Part shown: piece after piece, positions 5,234-27,981 of the stretch | Numbering within the stretch: the first letter of the stretch is position 1 | Layout of the letters: every line of letters begins with the position of its first letter | Assembly (NCBI GenBank): GCA_964653295.1 | Contig: CAZZFH010000001.1 | Span: 1-37,437, forward strand | From: an uncultured Candidatus Bathyarchaeia archaeon | GTDB lineage: Archaea; Thermoproteota; Bathyarchaeia; TCS64 | Length of the DNA: 37,437 bases | Direction of reading: 5' to 3' | Translations under genes and position numbers: made by a program | The notes under the pieces: generated by a model | Seen by the model: the letters and a program-made list of their open reading frames with translations, nothing else | Databases searched by the model: none | Told to the model about the DNA's origin: nothing

Positions 5234-5737
5234 ATGCGTTGCGAGGTATGCGGACGAGAAATACATGGACCACCATACTACAGAGTTATCGAGGGCGGCA
5301 GACTTACGGTCTGCTCACAATGCTCAAAGTTCAGCGACCAAGAATGGGACCCCAAAAGACCCCAAGCAAGAAAGAGTCCAACACGCAGGAGATCAGCACA
5401 ACCACAGCCCAGACGGCGAAGCGACATCGAGACAGCAGAATCCCTAGAACTCGTAGAAGGTTATGGTATGATCATCAAGAAGGCGAGACAGAAAAAAGGA
5501 ATGTCAGTCGAGGATTTCGCTAAGAAGATAAGCGAGAAAGAGTCTGTGGTTAAGAAGCTTGAGAAAGAGAATATGAACCCACCCTTGAATCTGGTTAGGA
5601 AGGTCCAGCGAGAACTCAGCATCAATATTCTTGAGGAAGCTGAGACAGGAAGCGGAGCGGTCCTTACAAGACCAATGGGACCGAGAACGCTTGGAGACCT
5701 AATAAAAATCAAGGACTCCACCAAGAAAGAGGAATAA
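5234..5737 (+). CDS. mbf1: Archaeal multiprotein-bridging factor 1 (MBF1): N-terminal Zn-ribbon plus C-terminal HTH
   Basis: CEVCG...CSQC zinc ribbon, a basic linker, then a cro/C1-type HTH (IKKARQKKGMSVEDFAKKISEKESVVKKLE). Confidence 0.85.
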   Translation: MRCEVCGREIHGPPYYRVIEGGRLTVCSQCSKFSDQEWDPKRPQARKSPTRRRSAQPQPRRRSDIETAESLELVEGYGMIIKKARQKKGMSVEDFAKKISEKESVVKKLEKENMNPPLNLVRKVQRELSINILEEAETGSGAVLTRPMGPRTLGDLIKIKDSTKKEE

Positions 5738-5739
5738 TC

Positions 5740-6324
5740 ATACCATCTATCATTCTTTTAACTGGTACTCCTGGGACCGGCAAGACCACCGTAGCCAAGA
5801 TTTTATCCACTGAACTGGATGCGAGACACATTGAGTTATCAGTTTACGCAATGGAAAATGGGTTAATTCTGGAGAATGACGCTGAGAGGGATACACAGAT
5901 AGTTGATATGGATGCCCTTAGGGAATCACTTTTAGAGCTTACAAGCCACACAGAACAGACCATCATAGTCGATGGGCATTACAGCCATGAATTATTTGAT
6001 GTAGAACTGGTGAACCTCGTCATAGTTCTCAGGAAAGCCCCATGGGAGCTATATGATGTACTCCAGAACAGGCTGTACAGCTACGAGAAGGTCTGGGAAA
6101 ACCTAGAAGCAGAGATAATGGGAGTAATCTCAGATGAAGCACAAGAATATCCAAGGGAGAAACTACACGAGATAGATACAACGGGTAAATCTGCTGTAGA
6201 GGCTGCTGAGGATATCTTAGGGGTTATCAGAGGCGAAAAGCCTGCAAGCTTTGGTCCCATCGACTGGGTTACATACCCAGAGACCCTCAGAGTATTGGTG
6301 AACAGGACATGTACTTTATCATAA
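5740..6324 (+). CDS. Fap7/AK6-like adenylate kinase (ribosome-biogenesis NTPase); start assigned to non-canonical ATA 5740
   Basis: The ORF track starts at ATG 5851, but the same frame is open from 5644. It encodes (I)PSIILLTGTPGTGKTTVAKILSTELDARHIELSVYA upstream, which is the Walker A P-loop of this family. There is no ATG/GTG/TTG in frame between 5644 and 5850. ATA 5740 lies 2 nt after the mbf1 stop and about 7 nt after AGAGGA. Confidence 0.75.
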   Translation: MPSIILLTGTPGTGKTTVAKILSTELDARHIELSVYAMENGLILENDAERDTQIVDMDALRESLLELTSHTEQTIIVDGHYSHELFDVELVNLVIVLRKAPWELYDVLQNRLYSYEKVWENLEAEIMGVISDEAQEYPREKLHEIDTTGKSAVEAAEDILGVIRGEKPASFGPIDWVTYPETLRVLVNRTCTLS

Positions 6325-6533
6325 ACTGCCCGAGCTGTGGAAAAATTATTATGGCTAGCACAGCCAACCGCACAAAAACATGTCCTCATTGCGGCTCAAA
6401 AATACAGATATTCAACGCAAAGATATTAGCCAAGACTGAGTCAAGCCAAGATGCGTTGGAGATAATTCAACACCTAAAGCAACGGGAAAACACCGACCCT
6501 CATCCGGTAACTTTTAAAAAATTCAGGGCATAA
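6309..6533 (+). CDS. Small Zn-ribbon protein (DUF1922-like)
   Basis: 74-aa ORF with CPSCG...CPHCG. It overlaps the end of the kinase gene by 16 nt and sits in the MBF1/Fap7 neighbourhood. Confidence 0.6.
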   Translation: MYFIINCPSCGKIIMASTANRTKTCPHCGSKIQIFNAKILAKTESSQDALEIIQHLKQRENTDPHPVTFKKFRA

Positions 6534-6595: not shown

Positions 6596-7018
6596 TTGGC
6601 GGCCGTAACAGGAAGAAAATTCTTTGAAGAACTTGGACAGCTTGTCGGAAAACCAGTAATAGTCGAGGACGCAGCTGGAAAGACCTATGAGGGAAACCTC
6701 CTCGGGTTTGATTCACAGAGTATGAGCGTCGCTATGGGTGACGTGAAAGGCTCACAAGGAACTCTATACCACAGGCTATTCATAACAGGCAATACAATCA
6801 CGAAAATCATGGCCACAGATACACCGTTCAATCTTGACGGACTCAAAGAGAGACTCGATAGAGTCTTCCCAAACATGGTTCAGTACTTCCCAGAGGCAGG
6901 GGTAATGGTTGTAATGAACAAGATCAGGGTCAACGAGACAGGTGTAATAGAGGGAACTGGACCCGCTGCAAGCAGGGTTCAGGACATCTATAATAGGTTC
7001 ATCCAAGAAACCTCATAA
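6596..7018 (+). CDS. Sm-like (LSm) domain protein with a C-terminal extension
   Basis: 140-aa ORF. The N-terminal LVGKPVIVEDAAGKTYEGNLLGFDSQSMSVAMGDV...LFITGNTITKI fits the Sm1/Sm2 fold pattern. TTG start follows AGAGGA with a 6-nt spacer. Confidence 0.6.
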   Translation: MAAVTGRKFFEELGQLVGKPVIVEDAAGKTYEGNLLGFDSQSMSVAMGDVKGSQGTLYHRLFITGNTITKIMATDTPFNLDGLKERLDRVFPNMVQYFPEAGVMVVMNKIRVNETGVIEGTGPAASRVQDIYNRFIQETS

Positions 7019-7193: not shown

Positions 7194-7784
7194 ATGGAAA
7201 TTCAATATGAATCCGAGTGGATGAACCCCACAATAGAGCTTATGAAATGCCTAGGAATTATGGGAAAGCCAATAAGAAACGAGGAGATGGGCTCTATTGA
7301 CTATAAGATTGATAATGATAAGGAAAAAAAATTGATCCGTGCGATAGTGGATAAGAATAACCACGCTGCACCTGTTTATGTTGATGTAATTCGAGGGACA
7401 ATCGAAGAACTTGAAGAAAACAAGTATGATGAGGCAATAATTCTCTCAAAGAGGATAACCAACTCGGCGCATGATCTTGTAGCCAAGATAGAAAATCTGA
7501 GCATAATTACTCCCAACATGAAGAACAACTTCAATCTGATAGAAGTATTATCTGCAATACAGAAAAAAACCATAGATCTTTGCGAGATGAAATGTGGAAA
7601 AGCCCCAGAGACCAAAGAAGACTGTAAGGGCAAGACAGGAAGAAGCTACGAGTGCGATATTCGCAGGATAAGCGATGATGCTACATTCCATGCAACTATG
7701 AAATGGAAGAATGTGCTTTTAGAAGATTTCAACAACCTGTGTGAAGTAGAGAAAGAGATGAAAACCAACCTGGGGGTGAACTAA
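7194..7784 (+). CDS. Hypothetical protein; visibly low-GC, with a C-terminal Cys4 cluster
   Basis: 196-aa ORF. No family recognised. It contains CEMKCGKAPETKEDCKGKTGRSYEC (C-x3-C-x10-C-x8-C). Its last codons contain the GGGGGTGA SD for the downstream eS30 gene. Confidence 0.55.
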   Translation: MEIQYESEWMNPTIELMKCLGIMGKPIRNEEMGSIDYKIDNDKEKKLIRAIVDKNNHAAPVYVDVIRGTIEELEENKYDEAIILSKRITNSAHDLVAKIENLSIITPNMKNNFNLIEVLSAIQKKTIDLCEMKCGKAPETKEDCKGKTGRSYECDIRRISDDATFHATMKWKNVLLEDFNNLCEVEKEMKTNLGVN

Positions 7785-7785
7785 G

Positions 7786-7959
7786 ATACCCACACACGGC
7801 TCGCTTACCAAGGCAGGTAAGGTCAGGTCACAGACACCAAAAGTAGATCGGACAGTTGATCATTCTGGACCAGGACCTATGCGTAAAAATAAGAGGTTAT
7901 ACATCAAACGGATTGTAACTCAGAGCGATAAAAGATATAATGATAGAAGAAGAAGGTAG
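7786..7959 (+). CDS. rps30e: 30S ribosomal protein eS30; start assigned to non-canonical ATA 7786
   Basis: Absent from the ORF track. Hand translation gives (I/M)PTHGSLTKAGKVRSQTPKVDRTVDHSGPGPMRKNKRLYIKRIVTQSDKRYNDRRRR*. HGSLxxAGKVRxQTPKV is the eS30 signature. The frame opens only at 7780 (TGA at 7777-7779). The only in-frame ATG (7879) lies after the signature. Confidence 0.8.
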   Translation: MPTHGSLTKAGKVRSQTPKVDRTVDHSGPGPMRKNKRLYIKRIVTQSDKRYNDRRRR

Positions 7960-8103
7960 AAATTTACTTACTTTTTCTATTCCTATTTTTTAGTGTTTTA
8001 GGTCAAATACCTAAGACTTATAACATACTATTTTCGTTAAAGGGGTAACTTATTTGTTAGATAAGTGGAAATTTCAAAATAGAAAACAATTGAGAGGTGA
8101 CAT

Positions 8104-8307
8104 ATACTGAGAGGCGTAGTTAAGAAATGGTTATACGATGATGGATTTGGATTCATCAAAACAAAAGATACTAAGAAGGATATTTTTTGCCACAGTCGAG
8201 ACGTGAAAAACTGTTATGATCTAGATAGTGGAGATGTAGTCGAGTTCGAGATCGAGAAGACCGATAAAGGCGTAAGAGCCGTCAACGTGAAGATAGTTTA
8301 TAACTAA
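8104..8307 (+). CDS. Cold-shock-domain (CSD/OB-fold) protein; non-canonical start at ATA 8104 or CTG 8107
   Basis: Absent from the ORF track. Hand translation gives (I)LRGVVKKWLYDDGFGFIKTKDTKKDIFCHSRDVKNCYDLDSGDVVEFEIEKTDKGVRAVNVKIVYN*. It has an RNP1-like GFGFI and an RNP2-like IFCHS. The frame opens at 8101 (TGA at 8098-8100). A strong SD, GAGGTGA, sits at 8093-8099. Confidence 0.75.
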   Translation: MLRGVVKKWLYDDGFGFIKTKDTKKDIFCHSRDVKNCYDLDSGDVVEFEIEKTDKGVRAVNVKIVYN

Positions 8308-14608: not shown

Positions 14609-14687
14609 TGGTGCTCCCGCCGGGATTCGAACCCGGGTTCTCCAACTCGAAAGGCTGGAATGCTTGTCCGGACTACACCACGGGAGC
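14609..14687 (-). tRNA. tRNA-Glu (anticodon UUC), genomically encoded CCA
   Basis: The reverse complement GCTCCCGTGGTGTAGTCCGGACAAGCATTCCAGCCTTTCGAGTTGGAGAACCCGGGTTCGAATCCCGGCGGGAGCACCA folds as a cloverleaf. Acceptor stem is GCTCCCG/CGGGAGC, anticodon stem CCAGC/GTTGG, anticodon loop CTTTCGA, and T-arm CCGGG-TTCGAAT-CCCGG. Confidence 0.93.
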
Positions 14688-14714
14688 ACGTACCATCATT
14701 AACCACGAAGCCTG

Positions 14715-14751
14715 TTTATAATTGTTTTTCAACGGGAGTAGTTTTTATATT
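14715..14751. promoter_or_regulatory. Divergent TATA-box candidates for the two tRNA genes
   Basis: TTTATAA (14715-14721) lies about 28-34 nt upstream of the tRNA-Glu 5' end on the minus strand. TTTTTATATT (14742-14751) lies about 29-38 nt upstream of the tRNA(CAU) 5' end. Confidence 0.5.
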
Positions 14752-14779
14752 GAGGTTGCTAGTTTATTGGCTGTGCGTG

Positions 14780-14858
14780 GGGCCTGTAGCTCAGTTTGGC
14801 CTAGAGCACCTGGCTCATAACCAGGGGGTCATGGGTTCAAATCCCTTCAGGCCCACCA
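14780..14858 (+). tRNA. tRNA with CAU anticodon. It is Met by anticodon, but the body resembles archaeal tRNA-Ile, so it may be tRNA-Ile2 (agmatidine-modified, AUA-decoding). CCA is genomically encoded.
   Basis: GGGCCTGTAGCTCAGTTTGGCCTAGAGCACCTGGCTCATAACCAGGGGGTCATGGGTTCAAATCCCTTCAGGCCCACCA. Acceptor stem is GGGCCTG/CAGGCCC, anticodon stem CTGGC/ACCAG region with loop CTCATAA. It is not initiator-like, since there is no AGCGGG 5' end. Confidence 0.9.
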
Positions 14859-15180
14859 TCACTCTTTCTCGGGGTTGCTTGTTATGCCTATTATCACGAT
14901 TATGATGAGGGATATACCAGCTAGAAGGTGATTAATGTCATTATATCGATTGAGAAGATTGGGTTTGAGCTAATGATGATGGATAAACCTATGTAGACCC
15001 ATGGAGATGAGCCCGAGGAAGAGCCTCCAGCAGGAAGTCTGGACGCCTGTCTTCAGGATATAGTTCTTGTAGGAATATGCCGAAGCCGTATTTTGATAGT
15101 GTTGCTGCGATCTGGGCGTATCTTGATAGACGATTGACCATTGATAATGATGGAGGATCATAATTAATTAAACGAGCCAT
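14859..15180 (-). pseudogene. Remnant of an ABC1/UbiB-family kinase gene: N-terminal ~60 codons plus a possible C-terminal TM tail, with the kinase core missing
   Basis: ORF 14989-15180 encodes ...RLSRYAQIAATLSKYGFGIFLQEL..., the N-terminal helix signature of ABC1/UbiB kinases (R..eI...L.KYGFG), and then stops after 63 aa. A different frame at 14859-14969 encodes LKPNLLNRYNDINHLLAGISLIIIVIIGITSNPEKE*, which resembles the C-terminal TM tail. Full-length family members are about 550 aa. Confidence 0.5.
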
Positions 15181-16610: not shown

Positions 16611-16632
16611 TTTTTCATAGGGGGAATCCCCA

Positions 16633-17829
16633 GTAAAGACTGAGGCAGCGATAATCGGAGCCGGTCCGGCGGGATTACTGGCTGCTGATGTTATTTCTAA
16701 GCATGGTTTTAGTGTTGAGGTTTTTGAGGAGCATGGACAGGTAGGCTACCCTGTTCACTGCGCTGGTATGGTTAGTGTTGAGGGGTTCAGCAGGCTGGGC
16801 ATCGAGATAAAACCTGTTTTCCACCAGAACACGGTTTTCGGGGGAAGGATTTTCTCGAGTGATGGCAGCTGTATTACTATCAGGGACAGGAAACCTAGAG
16901 CCTATATCATTGATAGGGGGCGGTTTGATGCTTATCTCGCTGAGGTGGCTGAGGGTAATGGTGTAAACATCAATACAGCGAGACGGGTTGATCAAGTTAT
17001 CTTCAAGGATGGCGTTGCTACGGGATTGAGGGTCGGGGGCTCAGAGATTGCGTCAAAGATTACTGTTGACGCTGAGGGGGTTTTGGGCAGGGTTCTGTCT
17101 AGATCGGGTGTTTCTACTTGTCAAGTGGGGGTATTGAACGGGTTTAATGTGGAGTTTGATGTGGAAGATATTGAATCTGATATGGTTGAGGTGTGGTTCA
17201 ACCAAGAGACCTCCAAGGACTTTTTCACATGGGTGATCCCGATCAAAGAAAATCGGGTAAGATGTGGCTTAGCTACCTCAAGCAGTGATGGGGTAATGGC
17301 GCTCAAACACTTCATCGAGAAGCGCTTCAATAAAGAACCCTCATCAACAATCCACGGCGGACTCGTATACACAGGGGGACCAGTAAATAAAACCGCTTAT
17401 CCGGGTTTATTGTTGGCAGGGGATGTAGCAGGGCAGGTTAAACCCACCACTGGTGGTGGGGTGGTGATTGGGGGGCTTTGCGCCCACTTAGCGGGGGAGT
17501 TTGGTGCAAAGGCGTTAGGAGAAGATGTTGGTGTGCTTGGTGAGTATGAGAGAGAGTGGCGGAGAAGATATGGCTCTGAGCTTCAGACCATGCTCATCAT
17601 GCGAAGACTGGTTAATGGTTTAAGTGATGACCAGCTGAATAAAGCAGTACACGCCTTTATTGAGGAGGGATTGGACGAGAAATTCACCCACTTGGTTGAA
17701 GAAGGAGACATGGACATGCAGGCAGGTATAATCAAAAGAGCGTTAACTGACCCAGCGATACTAGCTTCTCTCGCACGCTCATTAGGGAGACTCGTGGTCT
17801 CAGAGTTCTTCTCGGCTTTTGGGCTCTAA
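16633..17829 (+). CDS. Geranylgeranyl reductase-family flavoprotein (archaeal lipid saturation); no canonical start codon
   Basis: The ORF track starts at ATG 16768. The same frame is open from 16621 and encodes ...PVKTEAAIIGAGPAGLLAADVISKHGFSVEVFEEHGQVGYPVHCAG, the FAD-binding GxGxxG beta-alpha-beta, upstream of that ATG. There is no ATG/GTG/TTG in frame between 16621 and 16767. Candidate starts are GTA 16633 (after AGGGGGA) and ATA 16651 (5 nt after GAGG). Confidence 0.75.
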   Translation, partial: VKTEAAIIGAGPAGLLAADVISKHGFSVEVFEEHGQVGYPVHCAGMVSVEGFSRLGIEIKPVFHQNTVFGGRIFSSDGSCITIRDRKPRAYIIDRGRFDAYLAEVAEGNGVNINTARRVDQVIFKDGVATGLRVGGSEIASKITVDAEGVLGRVLSRSGVSTCQVGVLNGFNVEFDVEDIESDMVEVWFNQETSKDFFTWVIPIKENRVRCGLATSSSDGVMALKHFIEKRFNKEPSSTIHGGLVYTGGPVNKTAYPGLLLAGDVAGQVKPTTGGGVVIGGLCAHLAGEFGAKALGEDVGVLGEYEREWRRRYGSELQTMLIMRRLVNGLSDDQLNKAVHAFIEEGLDEKFTHLVEEGDMDMQAGIIKRALTDPAILASLARSLGRLVVSEFFSAFGL

Positions 17830-22046: not shown

Positions 22047-23777
22047 TTGATTGAGCTGAATTTCGGTAAATATCCACTTTATGATGAGCTTGTGGAGATA
22101 CTCCAGAGTCTTCACAAGGAGTACCCCAAGCTAACCAAACTATACAGCATAGGAAAAACACTCCAAGGCAGGGACCTCTGGACCATGGAGGTTACCAACC
22201 AAGAGACAGGACCAGGGAAGGAGAAACCCGGCATATGGGTTGATGGAAATACCCACAGCAGCGAGCCTACGGGCACCAATGTTTGTTTGAAGACCATCTG
22301 GTATCTTGTTACCAAGTATGGTGTGGATGAGACGGTCACAGAGATCATGGATAACAGGGTGGTCTATGTGCTCCCAAGGGTAAACCCAGATGGGGCTGAG
22401 ATATTCCTCACCAAACCATACCACTATACCAGTGGAGGTGTGCCCAACCCAGACTTCAAGGATGGGGAAGGACACTATGAGGAAGACGTGAATGGCAATG
22501 GAAAATCAGCCTTCATGCGCTGGATAGACTCCAATGGAGACTACAAGAAATCCAAGAAAGACCCACGCCTCATGATCAAGAGAGAACCAGAGGACACCCA
22601 TGAGGAAGATGGTCCCTTCTACAAGGTACTCCGCGAGGGTTTATTCATGAAGTGGAAACCCGGCAAAGAGATCACAATGGCTCCCAGAAGATATTTTGGA
22701 GGTAGCAATAGGAACTTCCCTGCCTACTGGGCGCCGGGAGGGCTACCCCTTGGGGGCTCAGGTCCTTTCCCGCTCTGGGAACGAGAGCCAAGAGCTATCA
22801 GCGACTTCTGGGCTAGCCACCCTAACCTTAGCGGCATGCACACATACCACACCAGCGGCGGATTAATCCTCAGAGAAGCAAACGCCCACCCAGACAGCTG
22901 GTTCCAAGAATCCGGCTGCGAGGAAGACCTAGAAGTATACAAGGTACTTGGAGGCATCGGTAAAGAGCTAACCGAGTACCCCTGCATCAGCATCTATGAT
23001 GAGTTCACATTCGAGGACGACCGCCCCTTCAGGCGTGGATGCGCCACCAGCTTCTTCTATGAGCACCTAGGAGCCTTTGTGTTCAGCACCGAGCTCTGGG
23101 ATTGGCCTTGGATGATAGGTTTGGATCACTTCAGGGAGCGTGGAGGCGTTGACTTCGACTGGGCTAAACTCTCAGAAGAGGAACAGCTTAATGAACTCAA
23201 ATGGATCGATGAAAACTATTCTGACGGCTTCCTTGACTGGACACCCCATGAGCACCCCCAGCTAGGACCAGTGGAGATCGGGGGAGTAGAGCGAAAATAT
23301 ACACGCAGGAATCCTCCGCCGGGAAAATGGCTTGAATACGAGGTAGATAAGTGCCTCATGTTCGCCATTCGACACGCAACCCTACTTCCCTTGTTGAGGA
23401 TCACCGAGCACAGGGTGGAGAAGGTAGCTGAAAAGATCTACAAGGTCTCGGCACAGGTAGCTAACACCGGGTTCATGTCTACCAATGTTACCAAGATGGC
23501 GGTTAAGATCAAGGTAGCCAAACCGGTGCTAGCTGAGATCAAGTTACCGGAGGGCGCCGAACTGGTCACTGGGCATGAGAAGGTTGATCTAGGTCACCTT
23601 GAGGGTCGTAGCGCTAAGTTATTGCTTCCAAGGGTTATCGGGGCTGATGTGGTGGACAAGACACGGAGCAGCGTGGAGTGGGTAATCAAAACCGAGTCCA
23701 ATAAGCCGCTTGAGGTAACCATCGAGACAAGGTGCCCCAGAGCCGGTACAGACAGGAAGAAGGTAATACTTCAATAA
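22047..23777 (+). CDS. M14-family zinc carboxypeptidase (no obvious signal peptide)
   Basis: 576 aa. The N-terminal YSIGKTLQGRDLWTMEVTN...GIWVDGNTHSSEPTG contains the M14 HxxE zinc motif, and PRVNPDG follows. TTG start. Confidence 0.8.
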   Translation: MIELNFGKYPLYDELVEILQSLHKEYPKLTKLYSIGKTLQGRDLWTMEVTNQETGPGKEKPGIWVDGNTHSSEPTGTNVCLKTIWYLVTKYGVDETVTEIMDNRVVYVLPRVNPDGAEIFLTKPYHYTSGGVPNPDFKDGEGHYEEDVNGNGKSAFMRWIDSNGDYKKSKKDPRLMIKREPEDTHEEDGPFYKVLREGLFMKWKPGKEITMAPRRYFGGSNRNFPAYWAPGGLPLGGSGPFPLWEREPRAISDFWASHPNLSGMHTYHTSGGLILREANAHPDSWFQESGCEEDLEVYKVLGGIGKELTEYPCISIYDEFTFEDDRPFRRGCATSFFYEHLGAFVFSTELWDWPWMIGLDHFRERGGVDFDWAKLSEEEQLNELKWIDENYSDGFLDWTPHEHPQLGPVEIGGVERKYTRRNPPPGKWLEYEVDKCLMFAIRHATLLPLLRITEHRVEKVAEKIYKVSAQVANTGFMSTNVTKMAVKIKVAKPVLAEIKLPEGAELVTGHEKVDLGHLEGRSAKLLLPRVIGADVVDKTRSSVEWVIKTESNKPLEVTIETRCPRAGTDRKKVILQ

Positions 23778-26540: not shown

Positions 26541-27895
26541 CTATGAGAAATTAGATGAGAGACTAGATATTTTCTCAAGTTTCTCCAAGTTGTCAACCTG
26601 CGTGATTATCCTTGAGACCTTATCGCTTGGGAGGGTCATGGATGCGAACGCGGTGAACTTTTCCTTGATGAACTCCAGTGGAATGGGTTGCTTGTCTTCC
26701 TCAAAAAGGTGATAACGTCTACCATCGCGGGTGAATATCTCAAGCCTTGTCCCTATCTTCGTGGGGAAGACCTCATCGATGACTGGATCAATATAAACCT
26801 CGGCTTTCTGCCCAAGCTCAACCACCCGGGGATCAGTGTAACAGTCAAAGAACTCCTTCATGAAAACCTGTCCCTCAACAAGGGCTATGGCAACTGCTAC
26901 TGCAGGGTGATTCTGGGCGTGGAGTGGGGTCTCGGCTACCTTGAGCTGGTTCTCAGCTGTGATGTGGTTCAACCCTATCCTGATCTTTTCTATGTCATCG
27001 ATCTCGATCCCATTCTCTTCCTGTAAGTCCAGCGCCATCTTGATGGGGGGACATAGCTCGTGGCAGCAAGCATAGGGCTTGAACTTGCATTTGAGAATCT
27101 TATAATCCGTGCCCAAGCCCTCGGTTAAACGGTTCAAGTCGTAGCCTTCAGCGTGAGACGCCAATAACCCATACTTTCCCTCGAAAACCGTACAAGGACC
27201 AGTATAGCCCTCACGAGCCAAGAGGGCGGCTAGGACCCCATTCATGGCAGCCTTCCCAGCGTGCAACCGCTTACTCATATCACCTGTGGTCAGCCATTCC
27301 TCTAAACCTGCTGCCTGAGTCCCAGCCAATCCAAAGGCGTTTACCAATTCATCCTCGTTTAACCCAAGCAACTTACCAGCAGCAGCAACTGCACCAATAG
27401 TGCCTACTACGCCTGTTGCGTGGAAGCCCCTGTTCCTGAGCCCGGGATAGACAGCGCTATCGACCCTACAGCTCACCTCATAACCGGCAACCAGAGCCAC
27501 AATAAGGTCTCTACCAGTTACCTGCTCTGCCTCTGCTACTGCTAAAGCAGCGGGTATGATGCATGCTCCCGGGTGTGCCCAGCTGGGGCGTGCCCTGAGT
27601 CATCTGCATCTATTCCATGAGCCATTGTTCCGTTTGCTAGGGCAGCCATTATCATGGGGTATTTTGTTGTTTCTCCGAGTACAGTGGATTGGGGTTCTCC
27701 CTTCATCTGCCGTACAATGTTGATGACCATCTGGCTCCACGGTAATTCGTGGGCGCCTAGGATGTTTCCAAGTGAATCTAGGAGATGCATCTTGGTTTTT
27801 ATTACTACTTCTGGGGCTAGGTCGTTGTACTTGAGTTCTGAAACATATTTGGCGAAAATCCGTGAGTATTCTTCCATATAGACACCGTGCTTCAT
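26541..27895 (-). pseudogene. MmgE/PrpD-family dehydratase gene interrupted by a single frameshift
   Basis: ORFs 27542-27895 and 26541-27500 are the N- and C-terminal parts of one PrpD-fold protein. The upstream frame ends ...AHGIDADDSGHAPAGHTREH...*. The adjacent frame reads ...SWAHPGACIIPAALAVAEAEQVTGRDLIVALVAGYEV, the conserved D.DD...HPG..IIPAALA block. The switch must lie between 27578 and 27599, around a G4/C4 run at 27585-27588. Confidence 0.75.
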
Positions 27896-27981
27896 TAGAG
27901 GGCTCGGAAAATATATCTTTTATTTGAAAAGAAAAGGATATGTCATAACTTTAGATTTGTGCAACTTTTTTCTTAAAAATT

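Follow-up and report, generated by a model that had tools for sequence, protein, structure and literature searches.

Translation table 11 lists ATA, ATC, ATT, and CTG as starts, and the classic case of such rare initiation is the AUU codon of bacterial infC. In animal mitochondria, AUA initiates translation beside AUG, and the tRNA-Met carries 5-formylcytidine at position 34. For archaea, the start codons named in a 2020 review of initiation are AUG, GUG, and UUG only (PMC7531240). Coupling of termination to reinitiation has been described for genes with canonical ATGA or TGATG overlaps (Huber et al., 2019, PMC6728339; PMC10666635), and it works only over very short distances in Haloferax and E. 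coli (PMC10666635). No description of ATA or CTG starts in Bathyarchaeia or in other archaea was found in open-access papers and bioRxiv. Here, a 37,437-nucleotide (nt) stretch of an uncultured Candidatus Bathyarchaeia archaeon (contig CAZZFH010000001.1; hereafter the window) was analyzed, in which a gene for a Fap7/AK6-like P-loop kinase follows the mbf1 gene and has no canonical start codon ahead of its P-loop. Comparison with related loci makes it very likely that translation of this kinase would start at the ATA codon at position 5740.

The open reading frame (ORF) of the kinase annotated at 5851–6324 is in fact open from position 5644, and 69 codons pass without ATG, GTG, or TTG before the first of them, the ATG at 5851. 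The translation of 5644–6324 reads ...ERGIIIPSIILLTGTPGTGKTTVAKIL... and was also given as ...GIIIPSIILLTGTPGTGKTTVAKIL...; the P-loop is encoded at 5764–5787, upstream of the first ATG, as the initial annotation had stated. The junction with mbf1 (GAGGAATAAtcATAccatct) contains an in-frame ATA at 5740–5742, 2 nt past the mbf1 stop. From this codon the N-terminal peptides expected are MPSIILLTGTPGTGK or (M)PSIILLTGTPGTGK, and reading further upstream gives IIIPSI... The earlier proposal that ATA 5740 yields a textbook N-terminus for the family was borne out by profile and structure searches: Pfam AAA_18 matched the 194-amino-acid (aa) product from residue 5 (E 2e-23), and the P. abyssi Fap7 structure 4cvn matched it over residues 4–181 (E 3.4e-26). 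Further matches among solved Fap7/AK6 proteins were 1y63 and, at E about 1e-15, the human AK6/hCINAP entries 1rkb, 3iij, and 5jzv. As in the Fap7/AK6 (hCINAP) ribosome-biogenesis NTPases, 4cvn among them, similarity extends over the full length and Walker A lies 5–8 residues from the N-terminus; the VDGH(Y) motif of the kinase aligned with VDYH of AK6. Homologues from outside the Bathyarchaeia also begin 5–8 residues before the P-loop Gly. The motif GxPGxGK[ST] near the N-terminus is present in the ATA-started protein and absent from the form started at ATG 5851. The product thus predicted looks like an ordinary Fap7/AK6 P-loop kinase, and would be unusual only in its start codon and in its fixed place behind mbf1. 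Given the codon usage of the window, a run of 37 codons without a canonical start has a probability of about 0.13 and is not remarkable in itself; what goes beyond chance is that these 37 codons encode the conserved beta1/P-loop/alpha1 segment, under purifying selection.

In order to place the start, 36 loci from species-representative genomes and 46 loci from metagenomes (designated L with a number) were fetched for the kinase comparison, and about 60 Bathyarchaeia loci formed the basis for choosing the position. Codons were aligned on the first Gly of the P-loop and numbered negatively upstream of it, 5740 being codon -8. Five orthologue groups (A–E) comprise 39 loci with 45–50% protein identity between groups, group C being formed by L005, L008–L011, L046, L047, and L049–L054; a further group F contains L015, L060, and L062. 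Aligning the orthologues, a check that the initial annotation had suggested, fixed ATA at the 5740 position in all 39 loci of groups A–E, even though the groups are only 45–50% identical. In the three loci of group F, codon -8 is ATC and an in-frame TAA stands at -10. As a control, three invariant-Ile sites within the same gene were used: these mix ATA, ATC, and ATT (28 ATA of 74), and ATA makes up 34% of the Ile codons in the window, vs. ATA in 32 of the 32 parsed loci at codon -8 (Fisher P 8e-11, a value uncorrected for relatedness among loci whose counts are not phylogenetically independent, which tempers the comparison). Codon -9 varies among I, T, N, P, K, E, and A by second-position changes, as a spacer would, and changes upstream of it are synonymous in the frame of mbf1 and not in that of the kinase (for example ACC to ACG in L001). 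Among the approximately 60 loci, ATA 5740 is the sole position that is always near-cognate.

Codon differences over the 37 codons of 5740–5850 were counted as synonymous or non-synonymous between the window and its 12 closest loci, giving ratios of 13:1, 13:2, 14:1, 19:5, 21:6, and so on. Since the differences were mainly synonymous in every independent assembly, this region is translated and under purifying selection. These counts bear directly on the deposited model, protein P0001 of this contig (157 aa, 100% identity), which starts at ATG 5851, the sole canonical start in the frame, and has no P-loop. That the kinase is made in this form, or that the gene is a decaying pseudogene, is very improbable: the 37 codons upstream of 5851 are under strong purifying selection in all relatives and encode the family-defining Walker A loop, and the relatives have been truncated at many internal positions (137–189 aa), so that no conserved alternative start exists. 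A consensus or assembly error that turned ATG into ATA at 5742 deserves still less credit. The source is a metagenome-assembled genome (MAG), and the window does contain a frameshift, in a PrpD-family gene, but the ATA is common to about 39 loci assembled independently from different samples and projects, and the other non-canonical starts of the window are conserved likewise.

The ATA codon is preceded by a Shine-Dalgarno (SD)-like AGAGGA element, as noticed in the initial annotation, whose GAGG core was found to be conserved in register, 7 nt upstream. The GAGG at -11 is in the same register as in the canonical SD-led genes of the window, with the SD core at -11 to -12 also in mbf1 (ATG), Alba (ATG), DUF1922 (GGTGA, ATG), and Lsm (TTG). 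The AGAGGAATAATC-ATA context of the kinase is nearly identical to the AGAGGAATAATA-TTG of the Lsm gene, in which TTG is invariant, and AGAGGAATAAT-N-start is common to the kinase ATA and to the Lsm TTG at 6596. In all orthologue groups, the distance from the mbf1 stop to codon -8 is 0–5 nt or the two overlap, the junction taking the forms TAAxcATA, ATAA, ATAG, TAAagaaATA, TAAcccATC, and TGAtgacaATA. The codon, the SD register, and the stop-to-start distance are thus all conserved. Mbf1, kinase, and DUF1922 genes form a conserved and tightly packed cluster that is probably co-transcribed. A ribosome could reach the kinase start by binding the SD-like element at 5728–5733, or by terminating at the UAA of mbf1 and reinitiating locally 2 nt downstream; initiator Met-tRNA would then pair with AUA with a third-position mismatch, as is generally known for near-cognate initiation, giving MPSIILLTGTPGTGKT... 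We propose that the SD positions the ribosome for initiation at AUA and that reinitiation by ribosomes terminating at mbf1 probably adds to this, and we hold the contribution of coupling with less confidence than the start codon itself. The tRNA used, the first residue, the need for coupling, and the efficiency of initiation are what we infer from this arrangement. As in described termination–reinitiation systems (Huber et al., 2019, PMC6728339; PMC10666635), the genes are co-oriented, stop and start are 2 nt apart, and the SD lies inside the last codons of the upstream gene; unlike the canonical ATGA/TGATG overlaps of those cases, the restart codon here would be AUA.

No start codon would be required if ribosomes translating mbf1 continued into the kinase, through a programmed -1 frameshift or read-through of the stop, and produced an MBF1–kinase fusion. 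Upstream of ATA, the kinase frame continues without a stop through 32 codons, running into the 3' end of mbf1, and the two genes are neighbors in every case. Nevertheless, the frame offset varies, being one in groups A, C, and D and another in group B, and in group F both genes are in the same frame split by a stop; furthermore, the open stretch of the kinase frame begins only 24 nt upstream in L002, 36 nt in L006, and 3 nt in L015, in the last case after the mbf1 stop. The sequence CCAAGAAAGAGGAATAA has no X_XXY_YYZ slippery heptamer, upstream substitutions are silent for mbf1 and not for the kinase, and no conserved stable RNA structure lies near the site: when the 90 nt surrounding the start were folded for 19 orthologues, most of them had energies near those of shuffled controls, and no structure was common to them. 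A fusion of either kind is therefore very hard to reconcile with the data. A leaderless transcript starting at the ATA, driven by the TATA-like TAATAAAAAT at 5700–5709, was considered and rejected, the element being unconserved (CTGATAAGCATAAAG in L001) and plain mbf1 coding sequence. A scan for bacterial-type promoters and terminators gave counts at shuffle level.

Several points weigh against initiation at ATA 5740. AUA is a very weak start in the model organisms tested, and the SD of the kinase consists merely of a 4–5-nt core. In E. coli, an ATT start reaches approximately 0.3% of ATG, according to Hecht et al. (2017) as cited in PMC10666635. Group C members have GTG and/or ATG at -11/-10, yet ATA at -8 in all of them, and in that group the ATA could be an internal Ile conserved for some other reason; in the group to which the window belongs, a second ATA (5734) aligns with the group C ATG. 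NCBI annotation of sister genomes starts the kinase elsewhere, at ATT (-4) in L004 and L091 and at ATC (-5) in L094 (by record, JAOZIG010000311.1 ATT -4, JAOZHP010000085.1 ATT -4, and WJJC01000143.1 ATC -5).

Some of these points would favor initiation at another in-frame near-cognate close by: ATA 5734, which overlaps the mbf1 stop, ATC 5737, ATC 5749, or ATT 5752. The first of them aligns with ATG in L008–L011 and is kept within group A, and the NCBI calls at -4 and -5 point to the last two. However, groups B, D, and E have no near-cognate at position -10, where they carry AAA, CTA, CAG, or GAA, and group F has a stop there; moreover, the mbf1 codons GAA-TAA leave no choice but ATA at 5734, and only 1 nt separates this codon from the SD core. 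ATC 5737 is ACC or AAC in close relatives, and positions -4/-5 are TTT, TAC, GTT, or GCC in other groups. As for the NCBI choices, they differ between genomes, and ATT was picked for FTHFS despite an ATG 2 codons upstream. Because the calls are inconsistent and ATT or ATC is picked near ATG or TTG, they reflect alignment heuristics, and ATA at -8 is the better choice. A start at one of these neighboring codons is thus unlikely. Since the other candidates each fail in some group, 5740 is the best-supported start, and the interpretation of the initial annotation, near-cognate AUA initiation at the kinase, is largely supported as far as sequence comparison can tell. The rare-start calls of NCBI were also tried as independent evidence and rejected, the same annotation picking ATT or ATC beside an ATG or TTG 2 codons away. 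In another group of Bathyarchaeia (L017, L019, L020, L059, and L064–L066), Fap7 codon -12 is either GTG or GCG, depending on the locus, and CTG, ATC, or ATA occurs at -6 to -4; non-canonical Fap7 starts may extend to further orders of Bathyarchaeia. Coordinates of the main features are collected in Table 1.

Table 1. Features of the mbf1–kinase region, of the other genes with putative non-canonical starts, and of the CAU tRNA in the window.
Feature	Position	Strand	Remarks
mbf1 (MBF1-like Zn-ribbon + HTH_3), upstream cistron	5234..5737	+	ATG, GAGG 7 nt upstream; ATG kept in all relatives
SD-like AGAGGA in last mbf1 codons	5728..5733	+	GAGG core ends 7 nt before ATA 5740
mbf1 stop TAA	5735..5737	+	2 nt upstream of kinase start
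ATA, putative initiation codon of Fap7/AK6-like gene	5740..5742	+	codon -8 from first P-loop Gly
Full Fap7/AK6-like P-loop kinase coding sequence, as predicted	5740..6324	+	194 aa, MPSIILLTGTPGTGKT...
Walker A/P-loop GTPGTGKT	5764..5787	+	residues 9–16 of ATA-started protein
First canonical start (ATG) in kinase frame	5851..5853	+	start of deposited annotation, 157 aa, no P-loop
DUF1922 zinc-ribbon gene, third cistron of mbf1–Fap7–DUF1922 cluster	6309..6533	+	ATG overlaps kinase 3' end by 16 nt; GGTGA upstream
Ribosomal protein S30e gene	7773..7959	+	SD GGGGTGA 7773–7779, 6-nt spacer, putative start ATA 7786
Cold-shock-domain protein gene	8094..8307	+	SD GAGGTGA 8094–8100, 6-nt spacer, putative start CTG 8107
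tRNA with CAU anticodon	14780..14858	+	G1-C72, anticodon stem CCUGG/CCAGG; not initiator type
Geranylgeranyl-reductase-family flavoprotein gene	16620..17829	+	GGGGGA 16620–16625, GTA 16633 at conserved Met position

The kinase is not the only gene of the window in this condition. The gene order mbf1, Fap7, DUF1922, Lsm, an unknown ORF, S30e, a cold-shock protein, ArcTGT, and onward is conserved, and two more genes of this series have non-canonical starts. For S30e, preceded by GGAGGTGA and 6 nt, an in-frame TGA located 6 nt upstream leaves only ACT, AAG, and ATA as possible starts. The ATA is present in the window and in seven distinct relatives, with CTG in L015 and ATG in L090, and NCBI annotation of sister genomes also starts S30e at ATA; the case that had been proposed at 7786 holds, with (M)PTHGSLTK as the expected N-terminus. 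For the cold-shock gene, the initial annotation was right in seeing a real gene with a near-cognate start, but the ATA at 8104 that it favored was rejected as the start, being GAA, AAA, or AGA in relatives. CTG 8107 is preferred: this codon is CTG in six sequences, ATG in L048, and TTG in L015 and L060, it is the start called by NCBI in sister genomes, and it would give (M)LR/(M)LK-GVVK. Coupling would not be needed in all cases, the CTG of the cold-shock gene standing behind a 147-nt intergenic region. In sister genomes (L089 1680–2603, L092, L093, and L094), a 307-aa TFIIB (TFB) gene lies between the S30e and cold-shock genes; in the window, these are separated by only about 147 nt (7960–8093).

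The third case, a flavoprotein of the geranylgeranyl reductase family, has its first canonical ATG at 16768, downstream of the GxGxxG motif. Gene callers have truncated the closest relatives, but homologues at ≤71% identity begin with MKTEAA, and GTA 16633 stands at the position of this Met; (M)KTEAAIIGAGPAGLLAADVISK would be the N-terminus. The earlier claim at 16633 stands insofar as a non-canonical codon occupies a conserved Met position, but the window has GTA at this codon, and ATA occurs there only in sister genomes (six loci, L083–L088). GTA, two mismatches away from AUG, has been found only in the window so far; it may serve as a weak start, it may have arisen by recent mutation, or the consensus may be wrong at this codon.

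In 21 other genes of the window compared with sister loci, the canonical starts were conserved, with ATG, GTG, and TTG interchanging, and four small genes located via a sister locus also had canonical starts. Non-canonical starts therefore amount to approximately 4 of 41 genes, close to the four cases and about 9% given in the initial annotation. An SD core at -11 to -13 was found in all four non-canonical genes vs. 9 of 34 canonical ones (P 0.0097), and most of the other genes of the window, which have no SD, are probably leaderless. We propose that this is a habit of the clade, in which SD-led cistrons would tolerate AUA or CUG starts (here also GUA) and SD-less genes would keep ATG, GTG, or TTG. 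The only strong G(A/G)GGTGA SDs right before ORFs of the window (7773–7779 and 8094–8100) precede the genes starting at ATA and CTG, and in related loci the codon that comes after a strong SD and a 6-nt spacer is ATA (9) or CTG (7), and hardly ever ATG. This pattern suggests that a strong SD may compensate for a weak start codon.

The kinase resembles other genes with rare starts, such as infC, in that a conserved gene of essential type uses a codon that differs from AUG by one mismatch, needs an SD to position the ribosome, and presumably incorporates Met via the initiator tRNA. Unlike infC, about 4 of 41 genes in the window share the trait, a ribosomal protein gene among them, the codon is kept across groups of 45–50% identity, and no autoregulatory logic is evident. 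Rare starts are an already known category; what is new is the scale and conservation of the pattern, together with the correct placement of the kinase start.

The AUA starts also resemble those of animal mitochondria, in which AUA is a regular initiation codon beside AUG. Unlike in mitochondria, where AUA means Met in elongation, internal ATA codons here are Ile. A reassignment of ATA to Met in this lineage would account for ATA at the expected Met position of several genes, but there is next to nothing in its favor otherwise. In FTHFS, the conserved Ile residues in DIEIAQ and GIKGG of the Moorella enzyme are matched by internal ATA codons, the other internal ATA codons aligning with Leu, Thr, or Met, and ATG aligns with Met; ATA represents 34% of Ile-family codons, too, and the putative non-canonical starts include CTG and GTA. 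In addition, the window carries a non-initiator tRNA with a CAU anticodon, which is compatible with tRNA-Ile2. Its anticodon stem does not have the three G-C pairs found in initiators, and it is probably either tRNA-Ile2, the AUA decoder, or elongator tRNA-Met. On the + strand, tRNA(CAU) forms a divergent pair (14609–14858) with tRNA-Glu(UUC), which is on the - strand, and CCA is encoded in both genes. An initiator tRNA was not found in the window or in 94 related loci.

Rather than a change of code, a relaxed initiation apparatus might be envisaged in Bathyarchaeia or a large clade of them, tolerating mismatches at the third and first codon positions, with AUA, CUG, and GUA as regular and stable SD-led starts of approximately 1 gene in 10, S30e included. 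We put this forward only tentatively, as a doubtful but attractive extension of the data; a modified C34 in the initiator tRNA or altered aIF1/aIF2 are possible causes. If true, a systematic expansion of the start-codon set would be seen here for the first time in an archaeal lineage.

Other features of the window were recorded during the analysis. A gene of the MmgE/PrpD family (26541–27919, - strand) is split over two frames: the ORF 27542..27919 corresponds to profile positions 3–96, and the open frame 26541..27599 to 95–242 plus the C-domain. An imperfect direct repeat (GGGCACGCCCCAGCT/GGGCACACCCGGGAGC) lies at the junction (about 27545–27600). The split could have arisen by a frameshift mutation or by an indel in the assembly, or the gene could be a pseudogene. 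At 14862–15180 (- strand), a gene for an ABC1/UbiB-type kinase, intact in L083–L085 and L092 (538–553 aa), is reduced to N- and C-terminal fragments, which looks like an internal deletion of approximately 1.3 kb beside the tRNA-CAT gene. Regarding canonical starts, the first ATG of the FTHFS ORF (2109, - strand) is not conserved (TGG, GTG, ACG, or GTA in relatives), and the start is likely to be the invariant ATG 2088, 7 codons downstream. The listed GTG start of an MFS transporter ORF (11330) overlaps the beta-CASP gene; because a stop codon directly follows this GTG in L083, the real start lies further downstream. Finally, a 576-aa ORF (22047–23777) matches Peptidase_M14 only in its N-terminal part (profile 3–108 of 286), with no Pfam match in the rest, and is kept at full length in sister loci.

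The consequences for annotation could be followed in the relatives of the kinase. The closest ones (60–85% identity) have nearly all been called short, at 137–189 aa, starting at many different internal Met, Leu, or Val codons, whereas homologues at approximately 55% identity are full length and begin with MITIPQVF... or MTIPPVY... Among the best 120 homologue clusters from a search of 5.8 billion proteins, 68 were truncated at the N-terminus, 57 of them without the P-loop and 11 starting inside or just before it. With P0001 itself among the truncated proteins, this agrees with the earlier warning that callers limited to ATG, GTG, and TTG truncate such genes.

Bathyarchaeia are among the most abundant uncultured archaea of sediments, and their biology is read almost wholly from automatically annotated MAGs. 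If ATA, CTG, or similar codons open approximately 10% of their genes, callers that accept only ATG, GTG, and TTG would cut off catalytic N-termini such as the P-loop and the FAD-binding GxGxxG, and would drop short genes such as S30e entirely. Estimates of gene content and completeness for these abundant sediment archaea would then be biased. A conserved near-cognate start with an SD, mostly behind a stop, would also offer a natural test of start-codon stringency in archaea, whose initiation factors are eukaryote-like, and of whether SD pairing or reinitiation can replace a cognate codon.

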